Assembly (NCBI GenBank): GCA_964016885.1
Contig: OZ024742.1
Location: 116,002,001-116,066,000 of the forward strand
DNA: 64,000 nt
Origin: Eledone cirrhosa
Lineage: Eukaryota
Reading direction: 5' to 3'
The notes beneath the pieces are model-generated. The model was not told the origin of the DNA. It was given only the letters and a program-made list of their open reading frames with translations, and ran no database searches. Position 1 is the first letter of the stretch, and the number at the start of each line of letters is the position of its first letter. Made by a program: the position numbers and the translations under genes. This document shows positions 2,001 through 48,599 of this stretch, one piece after another.

Positions 2001-2309
2001 CACATATATATAAACAAGTAAAATATAAAATATACATCGATATACATACATATACATATATATATATATATATATACACATACATGCATATACATACATA
2101 TACATACACATATACACAAACACATACATACTCATACATATAAATGCACACCATATAAATACACATACACATACACACACGCATACATATAGAGACACAT
2201 ACATATACACATATAAATACATAGACATATACACATATATATATATATACACATACACGCATACATATAAATATATATACATTCACAACACACGTATATA
2301 TATATATAT
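1500..2309. repeat. Compound (TA)n/(CA)n/(TACA)n microsatellite
   Basis: Seen directly; source of the spurious YI/HT ORFs. Confidence 0.9.
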
Positions 2310-2668
2310 ATAAAAACAAATAACGAAACGAAATTAAATTTCGTTTCGCTTCTAACTCACTTTTGTATGACTGATGCTTAAACAATTAAGTTAAAGTGTA
2401 CATCTACATATGTATACGGAAGTATTAGTATGCATATAAATACACACATGTATACATATGTACATGTACTCAGCTTTTCACTAGACACTTTACAGTGAGT
2501 GTCAGCTAGTCTGTATGTAACCACATATGTTTTTATCGTTTCCGCTGAACTGGTGCGTACAATGACTCATGTGCTATGCAAATTAGTCTACCCACTACTA
2601 ATTTTCATAGAAAAAGCATATAACGATATGTGCTTTTACAATTCTCCAGAGAAGCCGGAAGATGGGTA

Positions 2669-2713
2669 AATATTGCTGATGAGATGTAATAACATCGAAA
2701 CTAGTCCAATATT
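2669..2713 (+). ncRNA. Canonical minimal type I hammerhead (family C, copy 1)
   Basis: aatattg CTGATGA gatgt aata acatc GAA ACTAGT C caatatt. 7-bp helix I, 5-bp helix II with G10.1-C11.1, palindromic helix III, GUC site. Enclosed by ATTCTCCAGAG/CTCTGGAGAAT. Confidence 0.92.
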
Positions 2714-3137
2714 CCTGTCTGGCCCTCTGGAGAATAGAGGAAATGTATTTCCTTGAAAACCCGTATGACTCTAAAACCCGGTCCGTCTGTGTGGTTACAT
2801 ACAGACTAGCTGACACTCACTGTAAAGTGTCTAGTGAAAAGCTGAGTACATGTACATATGTATACATGTGTGTATTTATATGCATACTAATACTTCCGCA
2901 TACATATGTAGATGTACACTTTAACTTAATTGTTTAAGCGTCAGTCATACAAAAGTGAGTTAGAAGCGAAACGAAATTTAATTTCGTTTCGTTATTTGTT
3001 TTTATCGTTTCCGCTGAACCGGTGCGTACAATGACTCACGTTCTATGCAAATTAGTCTACCCACTACTAATTTTCATAGAAAAAGCAAATAACGATATGA
3101 GCTTTTACAATTCTCCAGAGAAGCCGGAAGATGGGTA

Positions 3138-3182
3138 AATATTGCTGATGAGATGTAATAACATCGAAACTAGTCCAATATT
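3138..3182 (+). ncRNA. Canonical minimal type I hammerhead (family C, copy 2)
   Basis: Identical to 2669-2713, 469 bp downstream. Confidence 0.92.
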
Positions 3183-3401
3183 CCTGTCTGGCCCTCTGGA
3201 GAATAGAGGAAATGTATTTCCTTGAAAACCCGTATGACTCTAAAACCCGGTCCGTCTGTGTGGTTACATACAGACTAGCTGACACTCACTGTAAAGTGTC
3301 TAGTGAAAAGCTGAGTACATGTACATATGTATACATGTGTGTATTTATATGCATACTAATACTTCCGCATACATATGTAGATGTACACTTTAACTTAATT
3401 G

Positions 3402-3402
<1 letters not shown>

Positions 3403-3457
<55 letters not shown>

Positions 3458-5452: not shown

Positions 5453-7835
5453 ATTGGAATAAATGCTCTGAAATAGCGATATATATGTGAATATAGACAT
5501 AGGATATTCGAAAATATTCTGTATGTTCATAATAAACATTTTGAAGACCTAATCGCTATAGAATAGAATACGTCACGTATTACAATTAGATTCTCGATAA
5601 AAGCAAGGGAAGTAAGTCTACGCGTTTCATTCTCGTTAGAAATCGTCAGGACTACATATCCAGTGCTTTCATCGAGAATGACACAGCTAGAGACTTATAG
5701 AATACTTAGCTGTGTACAGGAACTGGTTTGAAAGAGCGGTTGCCGGTCCGGCAGAAATTAGAAATTGGAATAAATGCTCTGAAATAGCGATATATATGTG
5801 AATATAGACATAGGATATTCGAAAATATTCTGTATGTTCATAATAAACATTTTGAAGACCTAATCGCTATAGAATAGAATACGTCACGTATTACAATTAG
5901 ATTCTCGATAAAAGCAAGGGAAGTAAGTCTACGCGTTTCATTCTCGTTAGAAATCGTCAGGACTACATATCCAGTGCTTTCATCGAGAATGACACAGCTA
6001 GAGACTTATAGAATACTTAGCTGTGTACAGGAACTGGTTTGAAAGAGCGGTTGCCGGTCCGGCAGAAATTAGAAATTGGAATAAATGCTCTGAAATAGCG
6101 ATATATATGTGAATATAGACATAGGATATTCGAAAATATTCTGTATGTTCATAATAAACATTTTGAAGACCTAATCGCTATAGAATAGAATACGTCACGT
6201 ATTACAATTAGATTCTCGATAAAAGCAAGGGAAGTAAGTCTACGCGTTTCATTCTCGTTAGAAATCGTCAGGACTACATATCCAGTGCTTTCATCGAGAA
6301 TGACACAGCTAGAGACTTATAGAATACTTAGCTGTGTACAGGAACTGGTTTGAAAGAGCGGTTGCCGGTCCGGCAGAAATTAGAAATTGGAATAAATGCT
6401 CTGAAATAGCGATATATATGTGAATATAGACATAGGATATTCGAAAATATTCTGTATGTTCATAATAAACATTTTGAAGACCTAATCGCTATAGAATAGA
6501 ATACGTCACGTATTACAATTAGATTCTCGATAAAAGCAAGGGAAGTAAGTCTACGCGTTTCATTCTCGTTAGAAATCGTCAGGACTACATATCCAGTGCT
6601 TTCATCGAGAATGACACAGCTAGAGACTTATAGAATACTTAGCTGTGTACAGGAACTGGTTTGAAAGAGCGGTTGCCGGTCCGGCAGAAATTAGAAATTG
6701 GAATAAATGCTCTGAAATAGCGATATATATGTGAATATAGACATAGGATATTCGAAAATATTCTGTATGTTCATAATAAACATTTTGAAGACCTAATCGC
6801 TATAGAATAGAATACGTCACGTATTACAATTAGATTCTCGATAAAAGCAAGGGAAGTAAGTCTACGCGTTTCATTCTCGTTAGAAATCGTCAGGACTACA
6901 TATCCAGTGCTTTCATCGAGAATGACACAGCTAGAGACTTATAGAATACTTAGCTGTGTACAGGAACTGGTTTGAAAGAGCGGTTGCCGGTCCGGCAGAA
7001 ATTAGAAATTGGAATAAATGCTCTGAAATAGCGATATATATGTGAATATAGACATAGGATATTCGAAAATATTCTGTATGTTCATAATAAACATTTTGAA
7101 GACCTAATCGCTATAGAATAGAATACGTCACGTATTACAATTAGATTCTCGATAAAAGCAAGGGAAGTAAGTCTACGCGTTTCATTCTCGTTAGAAATCG
7201 TCAGGACTACATATCCAGTGCTTTCATCGAGAATGACACAGCTAGAGACTTATAGAATACTTAGCTGTGTACAGGAACTGGTTTGAAAGAGCGGTTGCCG
7301 GTCCGGCAGAAATTAGAAATTGGAATAAATGCTCTGAAATAGCGATATATATGTGAATATGTAGTCCTGACGATTTCTAACGAGAATGAAACGCGTAGAC
7401 TTACTTCCCTTGCTTTTATCGAGAATCTAATTGTAATACGTGACGTATTCTATTCTATAGCGATTAGGTCTTCAAAATGTTTATTATGAACATACAGAAT
7501 ATTTTCGAATATCCTATGTCTATATTCACATATATATCGCTATTTCAGAGCATTTATTCCAATTTCTAATTTCTGCCGGACCGGCAACCGCTCTTTCAAA
7601 CCAGTTCCTGTACACAGCTAAGTATTCTATAAGTCTCTAGCTGTGTCATTCTCGATGAAAGCACTGGATATGTAGTCCTGACGATTTCTAACGAGAATGA
7701 AACGCGTAGACTTACTTCCCTTGCTTTTATCGAGAATCTAATTGTAATACGTGACGTATTCTATTCTATAGCGATTAGGTCTTCAAAATGTTTATTATGA
7801 ACATACAGAATATTTTCGAATATCCTATGTCTATA

Positions 7836-7839
<4 letters not shown>
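5453..7839 (-). mobile_element. 311-bp x6 tandem array plus ~1.5 inverted units, one hammerhead per unit (retrozyme-like)
   Basis: attggaat unit starts at 5453, 5764, 6075, 6386, 6697, 7008, 7319. Strand switch at ~7357-7360 through an ATAT microhomology. Inverted block runs to 7839. (TA)n flanks. Hammerheads on - at 5612-5655 and every +311, on + at 7361-7404 and 7672-7715. Confidence 0.9.
7361..7404 (+). ncRNA. Minimal type I hammerhead (family D; 8 copies in the array)
   Basis: gtagtc CTGACGA t-ttct aacg agaa-t GAA ACGCGT A gacttac. Palindromic helix III, GUA site. In complete units it is enclosed by attctcgatgaaagca/tgcttttatcgagaat. Confidence 0.85.
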
Positions 7840-24579: not shown

Positions 24580-27500
24580 ATGCCTAGAAAACGTTCCAGA
24601 TCATTATATGGAAGGTCATCTTCCGAAGTTAAGAGAAAGAAAACACAGCGATCTGAAGAAATCGAAGAAGTTCGGCATGCCCGTCTAGCTGCTAACAGAG
24701 CCCAAGCAGCTTTAGCACGAGCACACCGTTTGGATAAAAGGGAACAAAGGACTGCTGCTACACGAGAACAACAAATTAAGGAACAGCAGAAAATAAGACG
24801 AAATACTAATCACGCACATAGTTCCAATGCCCGAGCAGGATAACAAGCCACAAGTAAAATGAACTGGCTGATGGATGCTTTTTCTTATGACCCTCAAAAG
24901 GACTACAGCAGTAATCCACAAATCAACATTGGGAAAATGAACAAATGCTGCCAGTATTGTGGTGCCAAGAAGTGGGCAGCAGAAACACCATGTCTATCCT
25001 GCTCAAAAGGCAAAGTGAGCCTTAAAACAATACAAGAACCTCCTGAATTTCTGAAGAATCTGCTCTTTCAGCATACACCAGAAGCACGATACTTCAATAA
25101 ATACATCATGAAATATAATTCTGGCTTTCAAATGACATCTTTTAGGGCTGACAGGAATGTGACTGACTTTAGATTCTGTACAACTTATAAAATTCAAGGA
25201 CAGTGTTACCACTTAATGAGTGGCCTTCTCCCACTTTCACAGGAGCCTCACAAATTTGTGCAGGCTTACTTCATGGGTGAAAATGAAACACAGGCCTAAC
25301 AAAGATGTACCAATGTCCATGGCGGTTTACAGTTCTACATAGTCATAAATCTACCAGAAATGCTTCACCAACATCACATGTACGTCAGTGTATTTAAATA
25401 TGCACTGGAGCATATGAACAACACTACAGATCGTAAAATCATCATTAGAGCAGACAAACGCCCAGCTTCAGAACATGAACGCAGATTCAATGTACCTGTC
25501 ACTGATGAAGTTGCAATCATAATGGTTGATGAACAGCATGAACGATGTGACATTGTTTTTCAAAAACAAAGTGGACATTTGGAGCAAATTTGTGAAACTC
25601 ATAGAGTTATGATTCACGACAATATCTGCTCATCTTTTGGAATGGTCAAGATGGATATCATTTTCAGCTACGGCAGATCAACCCAGGAATGCGACGAGAT
25701 ACTGGCCGATCGATCAGCTGCAAAGAATTCTATGCTTATCATTTCATGGTACGTGATCAGTTCAACCAAGTTCTGCGATTCAAAGAAGTGACCAGCCAGT
25801 TCATGGTGAATATGTATGCCAAAATTGAAACAGAAAGATTGGGTTTTCTTCGAAGGAATCAAACTAAGTTGAGGGCAAATAACTACATCCACCTTAGAGA
25901 TGCCATCAATTCTGATGTTGACCCAAGAAATATTGACCAGCCAGTCATACTACCATCAAGCTTCACGGGAGGACCACGTTACATGCATGAACGTACGCAA
26001 GATGCAATGGTCTATGTCAGAAAATTTGGTCGGCCAGATCTCTTCATTACATTTACATGCAATTCAAACTGGTCAGAAATATCAAAAGAATTATTTCAAA
26101 ATCAAAAACCAAAGGATCGACATGACCTCATTGTTCGGGTTTTCCAGGAAAAGCAAAAAAAAAACTCATCTGGCTCCTAAAAGAAGGAAGAATCTTTGGT
26201 GAGCTTAGTGCTTGGATGACCACTATTGAGTGGCAGAAGAGAGGTCTTCCTCACTCTCACACACTAATCTGGTGCAAGAAGATAAGACCAAATGATGTTG
26301 ATTAGATCATTTCAGCAGAGATGCTTTATAAAGGTGGTAATCCTGAGCTCTTTGAAACCATCAAGTCCACACTCATTCATGGTCCATGTGGAGTCATCAA
26401 TCCAGCCTCTCCCTGCATGAAAAATCAAAAATGCAGCAAACCTTTCCTAGAGCTTTTATTAGGGAAACTTCGACTGACAATAATGGATACCCCCTTTATC
26501 GTAGACGTAGACCAGAACAGGGAGGCAATACTGCAAGCCTAACAGTTCGAGGGGAGGAGCTGACCATAAACAATCAGTGGGGCGTCCCACTCAAAAGATT
26601 TTTGTGTAAACTTTTAAAACTGATATCAATATTGAGTATTGCAGCTCCGTCAAGTCAATCCTATATGTCACAAAATATATCAACAAGGCCAGTGACATAG
26701 CTACCTTTATTATTGACAAATAACTCAATGATGGTGGGCTGGATGACGTCAAACGGTATCAAACAGGTCGATACATCTCCAGCAATGAAGCTATCTGGGT
26801 AATTTTTCGATTTGATATTCACGAACCCACCCAACAGTGGTCAACCTCGCAATCCATCTGGAAAATGGACAGAGAGTGTACTTCACTGAGATCACTGCTC
26901 ATCAGTTGGCACAAGCATCACATGACACTACACTAAGTGGTTTCTTTAAACTCTGCCAGAATGATAAATTTGCTCGATCCCTCCTATATTCTGAAGTCCA
27001 AACATAAAACACCTGGACCAATTGCAAGACCTGGAATCGTAGAAGGCAGTGTCAGTTAGTGGAAGGTCATGAAGTCAAGAAAACTGATGTTATTGGGCGT
27101 GTGTACAATGTACATCCAAACAACAGAGAATGTTTTTATTTACGGCTACTTCTGCATATTGTTCGAGGACCAACGTCATTGGAGGATGTTAGGTGCTTCA
27201 GAGGAAGCGAGTGCGCAACATACCAAGAAGCATGTAAACAGCATAGACTCCTGCATGACAATGGACACTGGAGGAATTGCCTAGAAGAAGCAGCAATCAC
27301 TCAAGCAGCCAGTCAAATAAGACAATTATTTGCTATTATGCTCACAGTATGTGGAATTGATGAAGCTCATCTACTCTAGCAGCAGTACGAAAACAATATG
27401 TCGGACGACTATCTACACCTAGCCCGAAGACATCATGGCAATATGTATATGGAATATACCCCCAGGATTTACAATCAAGCTCTCTGTGACCTGTCCCATC

Positions 27501-28996
27501 GAGTTCAGGCAATGAATAGCACATTAACTAACTGCCGGATGCCAGAGCCAGATGAAGAAATGGAGGTAGCACAAGACATTTTTCAGGAGACAAACTACGA
27601 TATTCAAGCATTGCGTAAGTTTGTGGATGAAGATGAACCTCTATTGATGGATGACCAGAAATACGCCTACCACAACATTATCGAAAACATTCAAAATGAC
27701 AAGGGGAAGACTTTTCTTCATCGATGCTCCTGCTGACACAGGCAAGACATTCCTCATAAACCTCCTGCTTGTAAAAGTTCGCCAAAAGTAACATATTGAC
27801 CTTGCTGTGGCTTCACGTGGCATTGCAGCAACACTTCTGGATGGAGGAAGAACTGCATACTCCATGTTTAAGCTGCCTATAGATCTCACATGGCATGAAC
27901 AATCTTTTTGCAACATCAAGAACTCACCCAAGGGCAAGCTTCTGCAAATATGCAAAATGATAATTTGGGATGAAGCTATGAGCCATAAGGGAGCAATTGA
28001 AGCTTTGGACCGGACGATAAGGGATCTGAGAGAAAATAGTTACATAATGCGAGGAGTGACAATGGTTCTTGCTGGTGATTTCAGACAAACTCTGCCTGTA
28101 ATTCTTCGAGAGACTCGAGCTGATCAGATCCATGCCTGTCTGAAAACATCCTATCTCTGGCCACACTTTCAGCTGCTGAGCCTTACAAACCAACATGCGA
28201 GTGCACTTAACTGGTGACGAAGGTGTCAGTGAGTTTGCCATCCAACTACTTAAATTGGGATATGGACTTCTTGAAAAGGACTCCAATGACCATATTCAGT
28301 TGTCCTTTGGCCATATCATTGACACAGAATAAGAACTGATTGCCAGAGTGTTTCCAAACGTTCAGACCAGGCAATGTGATCCGAAATGGCTCTGTGAACG
28401 AGCAATCTTAGCACCTAAAAATGTTGCTGTGAAAGAAATCAACAGATCGCTGCTAGAGATGTTCCCGGGAGAGAAATATGCTACAAATCAGTTGACACAA
28501 TCACTTCTCACGACCAGGTTGTAAACTATCCAACTGAATTTTTGAACCGTCTTGAACAAGCGGAAATTCCTCCACACAACTTGATACTGACGCTTGGAGC
28601 ATCGGTTATGCTACTTCGCAATCTGGATCCTCCAAAACTTTGTAATGGCACAAGACTCATCATCAAAAATATGATGTCCTATGTTCTAGAAGTTGTAATC
28701 ATGTCAGCAAAATTTGCTGGTGACAATTGTTTCATTCCCAGAATACCTCTGAAGCCAACTTATTTGCCATTTGAATTTCAAAGACTTAAAATTCCGATCA
28801 GGGTCAGTTTTTCCATGACCATTAATAAATCTCAAGGGCAATTATTGAAAGTCGTTTGGTTGAATATGGCAGATCCTGACTTTTCAGATGTCAACTCTAT
28901 GTTGGCACAACAAGGGTTGGGAATCCTTATTGTCTCTTCATTGTGGCACCACAGGGCAAAACCAAGAATGTTGTTTATCCAGAGGCTTTGGAATGA
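24580..28996 (+). pseudogene. Helitron Rep/helicase (HUH endonuclease + PIF1 helicase), multiple stops and frameshifts
   Basis: CQYCGAKKW..CSKG zinc finger. Rep motifs GRPDLFITFTCN, EWQKRGLPHSH, YVTKY. Helicase motifs DAPADTGKT, IIWDE, GDFRQTLPV, MLLRNL..LCNGTR, FSMTINKSQGQ. Confidence 0.95.
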
Positions 28997-29981
28997 GCAA
29001 TGTTGTAATTCCCCATTCAATGACAATACACACAGATCTTAATTCCTTAGTCATGTAGTTTGCAAGGAATTCTGAAGCCGCAAATTTACTGCAAGGTATT
29101 ACTTTGGAATAATATGCAGGTATTCCCGGGCACCTCTGCTATATAAAGTGAAGACTGTGTTGGGTAGAAATAGCAGACAAATTTCTTTCAAATCCCACCT
29201 TACTTTCTCAGGTATGTATATATGTATGAAGCAAAAATGAATGTTTCTATGTGATAACTCGATCTACTAGAAATATTAGCAAAATCCATTTCAAATCACA
29301 AACAACTGTCTTACACACATACATGTTTGTGTATGTATCTATGTATGTCCTGTGAGCCACTATAACTGATGGTATAGCTAATAGAAATAGAAAACAAATC
29401 TCCCTCAAACAAGATCCTACTGCCATAGAGGCAAAGATTGGTGAAAGCTACAGTGTACGAATTTAAATACACTTTTCCCGAATCACAGAAATGAGTAAGT
29501 AAATGCTTCATTCAATCATTACCAAGGCTAAATTTATTTTCTTATTTTATTTATGGTTTTTAAAATTATCTTTACAGGTTGTTTTAATTTCAGAGGTTCA
29601 GATTGAGCCAAAGAAAGAAAGAAAGAAAGAAAGAAAAGGATAAATAAAAAAAAATCTAAATTTATTTTTTTGGTCATGCCCTTTTCAATGACAACATACC
29701 TATTGATTCATCTATGAGTAAAGCATTATATATCCTGACTGTAATAGGGAGCAGTATTCAACTAATCACCACTGGAAAAAACTAATATTTTTATCTAGAT
29801 GATTTACTTTGACCAAACCGCAATAAATATTCTGCTATAATTCCTACTTTGGTTAAAATTCAGCAATCATATTTGAATGTCAAATATTTTTTAATGTGTG
29901 CCAAATATATTGTAACTTTCATAAAATACCCAGGCATCACCGGGTAGCTCAGCTAGTATATATATATATATATATATATAT

Positions 29982-33094: not shown

Positions 33095-33510
33095 GAGGTG
33101 AGTTTTATTGTAGTACAATAAAGCAATGCAGATATCGGATAAGAAGCACTCTACAGTTTGTAGGACTGGAGTATACATAATATATAAGATCAAAAGATGG
33201 TTAAAGGAGTTCCATGTATTTTATTATGCGCATTTCAAAAACAAACATCATCATGCAATAATATTTGTGTTTTCATCAGATAAAACAGGAGGACATGATA
33301 TGAAGGCTAAAAAACACTTGTGGATAGTGGAGTTTTAAATCAACTATGTTGATTTAAAACTGCACTATCCACAAGTGTTTTTTAGCCTTCATATCATGTC
33401 CTCCTGTTTTATCTGATGAAAACACAAATATTATTGCATGATGATGTTTGTTTTTGAAATGCGCATAATAAAATACATGGAACTCCTTTAACCATCTTTT
33501 GATCTTATAT

Positions 33511-47822: not shown

Positions 47823-48470
47823 TACGGCTAATAATTTCGGGCTGTTTGTTTACAAACAAACCGAGCATTATAATAAATATTCTGTAAACCCATACGTACA
47901 TATATATATATGTGTGTGCATGTATGTATGTATATACATACGACTGTACGTCTGTATACATATATGTATTACGTATACATACTTATATTTAAGTATCAGC
48001 CGTATTAAGAGTGAGAAATGAAATTTCATTTTTTTTCCATTTACCGTTTTCGGTATACACGGCCGACTAACTCACTCGATATGTAAATTAGGCTGCTCAG
48101 CAATTAATATGCATAAGAAAAGTATATACTTTCAAACGTTCAATCGACTGACAAGAAGGTATACGGTGCAGATGACAGCTTATAAGCTAGAAACTAGTTC
48201 ATCTTTCCTTTGTCAGTGTTGAACAAAAGAGCCACGTTGGTTGCCGAACACTACGGCTAATAATTTCGGGCTGTTTGTTTACAAACAAACCGAGCATTAT
48301 AATAAATGTTCGGTAAACCCATACGTACATATATATATGTGTGCATGTATGTATGTATATGCAGTACATACTACTGTACGCCTGTACACATATATGTATG
48401 TACGTATACATACTCATATTTAAGTATCAGCCGTACTAAGAGTGATAAATGAAATTTCATTTTTTTCCAT
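47823..48470. repeat. Direct repeat pair (~220 bp, spacing ~430)
   Basis: tacggctaataatttcgggctg...gaaatttcattttttttccat at 47823-48040 and 48252-48470. Confidence 0.8.
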
Positions 48471-48599
48471 GTATATATATATATATATATATTCAAAATT
48501 AATTTAATTAAATTGAATTAAGGGAGGCATGTCCGAGACATGCGCCATATCCACCGTGGAATAAGCTCAAAGATTCCAATGAATAGATCCGAGCATTTT

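Follow-up and report, generated by a model that had tools for sequence, protein, structure and literature searches.

Introduction

Non-LTR retrozymes are recognized by at least two consecutive tandem units that each carry a type I hammerhead ribozyme, and the units described from vertebrates measure 51-972 bp (bioRxiv 10.64898/2026.07.22.740005). The same preprint reports pLTR homology and suggests local tandem amplification. Penelope-like elements (PLEs) had been proposed as the mobilizers of circular RNA templates (PMC7229834). In its canonical metazoan form, the type I hammerhead has a weak helix III with a palindrome and is expected to need a dimer (PMC4209133). EN+ PLEs themselves leave an inverted, 5'-truncated arm, and just one of the two ends bears a tail (PMC8557442; PMC3846280). 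In vitro, a lizard PLE uses two adjacent internal RT start sites, cuts and extends both strands and takes AT-rich targets, and the PLE tail lies between the two internal start sites (PMC11167929). A literature search with subscription papers and bioRxiv supplements outside its scope turned up no work on retrozymes in cephalopods or on retrozyme insertions with two arms.

Here we describe a 469-bp repeat from Eledone cirrhosa, a genuine hammerhead-bearing retroelement that is young and non-autonomous and belongs to the animal non-LTR retrozymes. It has at least two consecutive tandem units, each with a type I hammerhead, it is non-coding and its copies are dispersed. Very probably, this non-coding hammerhead repeat was copied from RNA into a TA tract by the RT-endonuclease of an autonomous PLE.

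Results

Anatomy of the element

The window, the whole 64,000-nucleotide stretch of DNA analysed, contains the element at 2310-3402. The original prediction of a tandem with an inversion and TA flanks is confirmed. Segments 2528-2933 and 2997-3402 repeat with a period of 469 bp and 5 mismatches, 2310-2525 is the reverse complement of 2790-3005 with 2 mismatches, and TA tracts abut both ends. The terms 'partial tandem' and 'inversion' describe the sequence layout correctly and can be refined: the tandem corresponds to a single arm 1.9 units long, and the inverted segment to a second arm, which has a fixed end of its own (Table 1). A target duplication is not distinguishable at this locus with its (TA)n flanks. 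The octamer ATGCAAAT, which is also present in a 386-bp sister family, may serve as a promoter element of the kind found in snRNA-type promoters.

Table 1 Features of the 469-bp element (window positions; register 1 of the unit is position 2707)
Feature	Position	Strand	Description
Left (TA)n flank	2295..2309		
Left arm	2310..2525	-	216 nt, register 84-299; 3' end at 2310 is the fixed long end with the tail, on (TA)n
Head-to-head arm junction	2525..2527		Position varies among copies
Right arm	2528..3402	+	875 nt, register 291-469, 1-469, 1-227; 3' end at 3402 is the fixed short end, on (TA)n
Octamer ATGCAAAT	2576..2583, again 3045-3052	+	Possible promoter element
Hammerhead module 1	2641..2735	+	Outer helix, bulged helix I, core from 2676, GTC triplet ending at 2706, predicted cut after C2706
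Unit-length monomer	2707..3175	+	469 nt between two predicted cleavage sites; non-coding, longest stop-free frame 84 codons
'Tail' between the two fixed ends	2932..3004	+	68-73 nt; 13-bp hairpin at ~2965-2993
Hammerhead module 2	3110..3204	+	Core from 3145, GTC triplet ending at 3175, predicted cut after C3175
Right (TA)n flank	3403..3448		

Elsewhere in the window, a small two-armed element at 400-690 has a hammerhead-like core on the minus strand at 457, and further hammerhead-like cores lie at 33279, 33413, 38575, 38947, 53784, 54152, 54709, 54941 and 55889. Broken Helitron-like reading frames occupy 24844-29039, the last of them with a Pif1 2B domain.

A conserved hammerhead

The two modules have the canonical metazoan type I core, with helix II formed by GATGT/ACATC and helix I by AATATTG/CAATATT. 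As originally described, the ribozyme sits within an extended hairpin, closed by the outer helix ATTCTCCAGAG/CTCTGGAGAAT at 2641-2651/2725-2735. The 95-nt module folds with a z-score of -5.7 and the 469-nt monomer with -8.8, and in neither case does any shuffle fold as well. A scan of the window with Rfam at gathering score gave no matches. Helix III comprises only 1-2 bp and the palindrome ACTAGT; since this form is expected to act as a dimer, a single hammerhead of the family may not cut. When the double hammerhead is imposed on a span of two units, the fold lies only 1.4 kcal/mol higher than the minimum, and in this model the double-hammerhead fold is energetically accessible.

Across 57 loci, the catalytic core (CUGANGA / GAAA / NUH, helices I-III) is invariant, with GUC or GUU as the triplet and C or T at position 17. 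The core and the helix III palindrome are kept across subfamilies 86-97% identical and in the sister family. An A-T pair of helix II is swapped to T-A in 14 of the 57 loci, and the same swap occurs in a contig of another organism; contigs from three organisms contain relatives. In an alignment of 12 family and 6 sister modules, 97.6% of cells are paired and 6 of 14 pairs change on both sides, which represents few independent events and mostly one event between the two families. The covariation score is 0.414, a value reached by none of 500 shuffles. The 'textbook hammerhead' of the original prediction is thus borne out, and the sequence supports a real hammerhead at both modules, with self-cleavage predicted. 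RT errors at a ligation scar were considered for position 17 and rejected: the position differs between subfamilies, and variation inside a single locus is confined to L036 and L180.

Family size and samples

Counted as an exact pattern, the long end occurs at 2,334 sites in the 3.0-Gb genome (control, 0), and exact-pattern counts on the forward strand give 1,155 long ends versus 743 + 196 short ends. DNA searches of the genome, which score the best candidates only, returned at least 308 matches from 39 of 735 candidates. The copies are dispersed over thousands of sites with unrelated flanks. The 469-bp type of the window is a minority; most copies belong to subfamilies of 465-467 bp that are 86-91% identical to it. 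Three sets were mapped: the window with 36 best-match loci (37); a position-ordered set of 60 loci from the first 80 listed ends, with 61 insertions; and 20 loci picked by eye among short ends without a nearby exact long end. Together they hold 118 insertions, ~5% of the family. Some loci are duplicated along with their flanks (L049/L050, L053/L054, L163/L164).

RNA-editing scars are not significant family-wide (24 distinct A>G versus 16 T>C events, p 0.21). In L147 and L172, A>G changes are clustered around the octamer; every unit carries them, and in L172 they make up 8 of 10 differences, as editing of the template RNA would leave.

Insertions have two fixed ends

An insertion consists of one or two arms whose 3' ends face outward onto (TA)n, with a variable inner junction. 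Arm 3' ends fall at register 294-299 (long) or 220-232 (short). By script-assigned classes, 47 of the 61 insertions in the position-ordered set pair a long with a short end and none pairs two long ends; ten of the others have one such end and a TA-flanked 5' end, three have foreign junctions and one ran off the stretch. By eye, three of the ten single-end insertions show a tiny second arm, and the array that ran off closes at a short end 14.7 kb away, at ~31 units. The best-match set, in which two duplicated pairs are counted, contains 25 long-short insertions among 37, one long-long and no short-short. Among the hand-picked loci, classified by eye (n = 20), we find ten long-short, one short-short (L238), one compound, four single arms and four foreign junctions.

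Inner breakpoints are spread around the unit, so that arms read through the predicted cut site. With three duplicated loci dropped, 15 of 156 arm 5' ends lie near that site, where ~9.6 are expected (p 0.06); a pile-up of 5' ends was considered as proof of cleavage and found insufficient. Target duplications were found for 8 of 97 candidates, convincingly only at L033 (12 bp) and L177 (~40-56 bp). L033 and L251 are independent insertions into the same site of another repeat.

By analogy with EN+ PLEs, the two-armed layout is a Penelope footprint: one arm is inverted and 5'-truncated, and a tail stands at one end only, between two putative RT start sites. Elements mobilized by PLEs are further expected to have a tail of 30-40 nt, and that of the 469-bp family is longer, at 68-73 nt. 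With its 29-nt hairpin looped out, it measures 39-44 nt. The 59-nt tail of the 386-bp sister likewise contains a hairpin of ~24 nt and comes to ~35 nt without it. Uncorrected tails measure 35 nt in a second repeat family of the window, the 311-bp family, 35 nt in its sister, and 38 and 37 nt in the coding PLE families F149 and F057. Because the long tails drop to ~35-44 nt once the stable hairpin is removed, our data suggest that the enzyme sets a constant distance between two start sites.

The relation to coding Penelope elements

The original prediction distinguished an independent element from an ordinary pLTR by whether its copies are attached to coding Penelope bodies, and our survey favours the independent element. 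A PLE ORF runs into the unit at a fixed register in none of the 118 insertions. Most were judged by the TA tracts at their two ends, the others by tblastn or by inspecting the flanks (tblastn results cover 21 loci and all 20 hand-picked loci). In 98 PLE-centred loci, the unit matches are all separate TA-flanked insertions. What follows the long end is further non-coding sequence of the unit itself. A pLTR shared with the intact PLE beside L036 or with the families F038 and F057 was considered and dropped, as these have no pLTR in common with the unit.

Intact autonomous families with RT and GIY-YIG are present in the genome. F149, with a 784-aa ORF in a 4,734-bp unit, stops at an equivalent pair of ends on (TA)n; of its two-armed copies seen whole, 7 of 7 have one long and one short end, and F057 likewise has two ends. 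A canonical hammerhead was not found in the F149 unit, and in the F057 loci none surfaced that was part of the element. These two families, which have no hammerheads, are the best candidates for the helper enzyme. We take them to be Neptune-like from the CxxC linker before the GIY-YIG motif, a label that follows the motif rather than a tree.

F149 sequence forms the second arm in two of the 61 position-ordered insertions (L149:1820-4290, L180:3317-3570). In both, the arm begins in F149 and passes directly into the retrozyme, with TA tracts at the outer ends only; the joint in L180 has a 13-nt fold-back. F149 accounts for 660 of the 854,500 other bases in the mapped sets. These chimeras do not prove a partnership, since foreign arms also come from other sources: two other hammerhead families (L036, L057), a LINE (L035) and flank fold-backs (L037, L056, L165). 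The F149 piece in L149 is degraded, and later deletion could have produced the chimeras. The F149 end and the unit have no sequence likeness beyond 10-nt words. In the three fold-backs, the second arm repeats, in inverted orientation, 30-75 nt from immediately beyond the TA tract, which would fit a cut TA end that folded back to prime synthesis on the DNA flanking it.

F149 (L218:4299-7948) and F057 (L110) have an extra upstream ORF of 455 codons with no Pfam match, while PLEs have a single ORF in the published descriptions consulted. Its overlap with the RT-GIY-YIG ORF is in the -1 frame and contains a T TTT TTA heptamer, which could be a frameshift site or a splice acceptor; no hairpin is predicted downstream of the heptamer. 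A further PLE at L036:6567-8969 is young and of high copy number (RT and GIY-YIG, 35,015 candidates), with a hammerhead-like core of its own in the terminal repeat and TA-flanked inverted arms.

Sister families and the outer helix

The 311-bp family (window 5453-7839) shares with the 469-bp family two arms, two fixed ends, TA flanks and an outer helix that starts with ATTCTC, and both have a palindromic helix III (ACGCGT and ACTAGT, respectively). It differs in its short tail and in the octamer, which was not found in the 311-bp unit, and blastn and nhmmer detect no homology between the two units. Both the common architecture and the lack of similarity had been predicted.

A further proposal, that ATTCTC may be a shared recognition element, is not supported, as sister families on both sides replace the motif and keep the helix. 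The 386-bp sister (nhmmer 5.5e-24 to the 469-bp unit) has the outer stem GTTCAAC/GTTGAAC, with ATTCTC in none of nine modules. Its copies lie at window ~47890-48490 and in L045, L054, L100 and L142; it shares the octamer and the tail hairpin with the 469-bp unit and differs in its outer helix, and its helix II has a U-U mismatch at the base. A sister of the 311-bp family (~70% identical) has TTTTCGGCG or TTTTCAACA stems, with ATTCTC in neither of two. We surveyed such stems more widely in 1.37 Mb of fetched DNA, which is enriched for the 469-bp family and yielded ~460 hammerhead-like matches in 19 clusters; ATTCTC occurs only in the clusters that contain the 469- and 311-bp families. At the base of the outer helix, only TTC/GAA is common to all four families examined. 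The most likely role of the outer helix is to hold the two ends of the released monomer together.

Discussion

We propose that arrays would be transcribed and that paired hammerheads would cut as a double hammerhead, releasing 469-nt units whose ends would be held together by helix I and the outer helix; these units would probably be ligated into circles. A Penelope enzyme would cut both (TA)n strands and begin one cDNA at each fixed site, each cDNA would continue through the ligation site, and the two cDNA ends would then be joined head to head. An RNA circle is more likely than not to be the template. Single arms can traverse the predicted cut site dozens of times and reach 15-30 units. In L147 (17 units), L167 (19) and L148 (6), all units of the two arms share fixed variants specific to the locus, a pattern expected from repeated reading of one molecule. 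A single template for both arms is not universal, since T193C is present in both right-arm units of the window copy and absent from the left arm, and since the arms of L031 come from different subfamilies. Variants occur in only some units of L040 (A25G), L064 and L066, the last with alternating patterns; local dimer duplications are likely in L066. Junction ('back-splice') reads cannot show a circle, as the genomic tandem has the same junction.

The same element and enzyme could also work from an uncleaved linear multimer transcribed from an existing array, with a hammerhead that acts slowly, depends on protein or serves 5' processing alone, and with no need for a circle. We hold this to be possible though not probable. 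Uncleaved RNA was the main substrate of the lizard PLE in vitro (PMC11167929), and only one of nine Xenopus retrozyme dimers was cut in vitro (bioRxiv 10.64898/2026.07.22.740005). The partial-unit variants of L040, L064 and L066 fit a mixed linear template or local duplication, and common variants could be inherited from a uniform parent array. Arms of 15-30 units with locus-specific variants fixed on both sides argue against a linear template, as does the conservation of the core and helix III palindrome across subfamilies and the sister family; moreover, the recurring variants do not lie at matching positions counted from the two arm ends. Amplification of a satellite at the DNA level, by unequal exchange or fold-back repair with no RNA step for most copies, would explain the duplications that include flanks and the probable dimer duplications in L066. 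The copies, however, occupy thousands of scattered sites whose flanks are unrelated, their 3' ends fall at two fixed points on TA tracts while the 5' junctions vary, and L033 and L177 show the occasional long target duplication. These features make DNA-level amplification highly improbable as a general account, and the fixed-end pattern, being common to coding PLEs, largely refutes it.

Two other alternatives concern the origin of the unit and its outer helix. On the derivation model of Li, Clavereau and Pollet (2026), the unit would be a solo or amplified pLTR of an unsampled coding Penelope. That preprint matches 24 of 57 retrozyme families of Xenopus to known TEs, almost exclusively PLE termini (bioRxiv 10.64898/2026.07.22.740005), and the ends examined here belong to four coding PLE families (F036, F038, F057, F149). 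Given that no PLE ORF runs into the unit in any mapped insertion, that matches in PLE-centred loci are separate TA-flanked insertions and that the unit's own non-coding sequence goes on beyond the long end, we consider such a pLTR very unlikely; an ancient pLTR origin is possible. As for the outer helix, ATTCTC/GAGAAT might be a sequence code that one protein reads in both families: neither strand varies appreciably across 57 loci of the 469/467 family, the motif is present in 8 of 11 unique modules of the 311-bp family, and TTC/GAA recurs in all four families. The sisters nevertheless keep the helix without the motif, every other one of the 19 hammerhead clusters lacks it, and it lies far from the putative RT start sites, as the element ends ~170-240 nt from the cleavage site and not at the outer helix. 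A code of this kind is therefore unlikely; a weak sequence preference is conceivable.

Returning to the circle as template, we tentatively suggest a more specific arrangement, in which a hammerhead circular RNA that does not derive from the helper's pLTR hijacks a two-ORF, Neptune-like enzyme lacking a hammerhead. A dimer of the enzyme would grip one circle at two start sites, measured by a ruler of ~35-40 unstructured nt with hairpins looped out, and would copy round it from both sides of the TA break; the chimeras would record jumps between helper and retrozyme RNA.

The family bears on which enzyme moves animal retrozymes and on whether a circle is copied, and it names candidate helpers with intact copies together with two precise start sites. 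In five families or clades, tails are 35-38 nt or return to about that length without the hairpin, which makes the spacing rule testable. The Penelope 'tail' and the rolling-circle proposal can thereby be tested directly in vitro.

The class itself is not new, as retrozymes and their Penelope link are already in print; the 469-bp family adds the negative ATTCTC result, chimeric insertions suggestive of a helper and a tail length corrected for the hairpin. It resembles the metazoan non-LTR retrozymes of Cervera and de la Pena (2020, PMC7229834) in its tandem non-coding units, one type I hammerhead per unit and low GC, and its weak palindromic helix III is as in the axolotl HHR_Amex1 described there. 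Its unit, at 469 bp, lies slightly above the 150-450 bp given in that paper. The word 'inverted' is absent from the accessible text of the paper, whereas most copies here are two-armed with fixed ends. To EN+ PLEs it is linked by a preference for (TA)n and by the existence of multicopy head-to-tail non-autonomous elements such as MRC1 in Chlamydomonas. In contrast to those PLEs, the family has no ORF, and its tail is longer and contains a stable hairpin. The vertebrate retrozymes viewed as PLE derivatives by Li, Clavereau and Pollet (2026, bioRxiv 10.64898/2026.07.22.740005) are likewise non-autonomous, PLE-linked and range from monomer to multimer. Unlike them, the 469-bp family has no coding pLTR among the mapped insertions and its candidate partners lack a hammerhead, and its multimers appear to be laid down at insertion.
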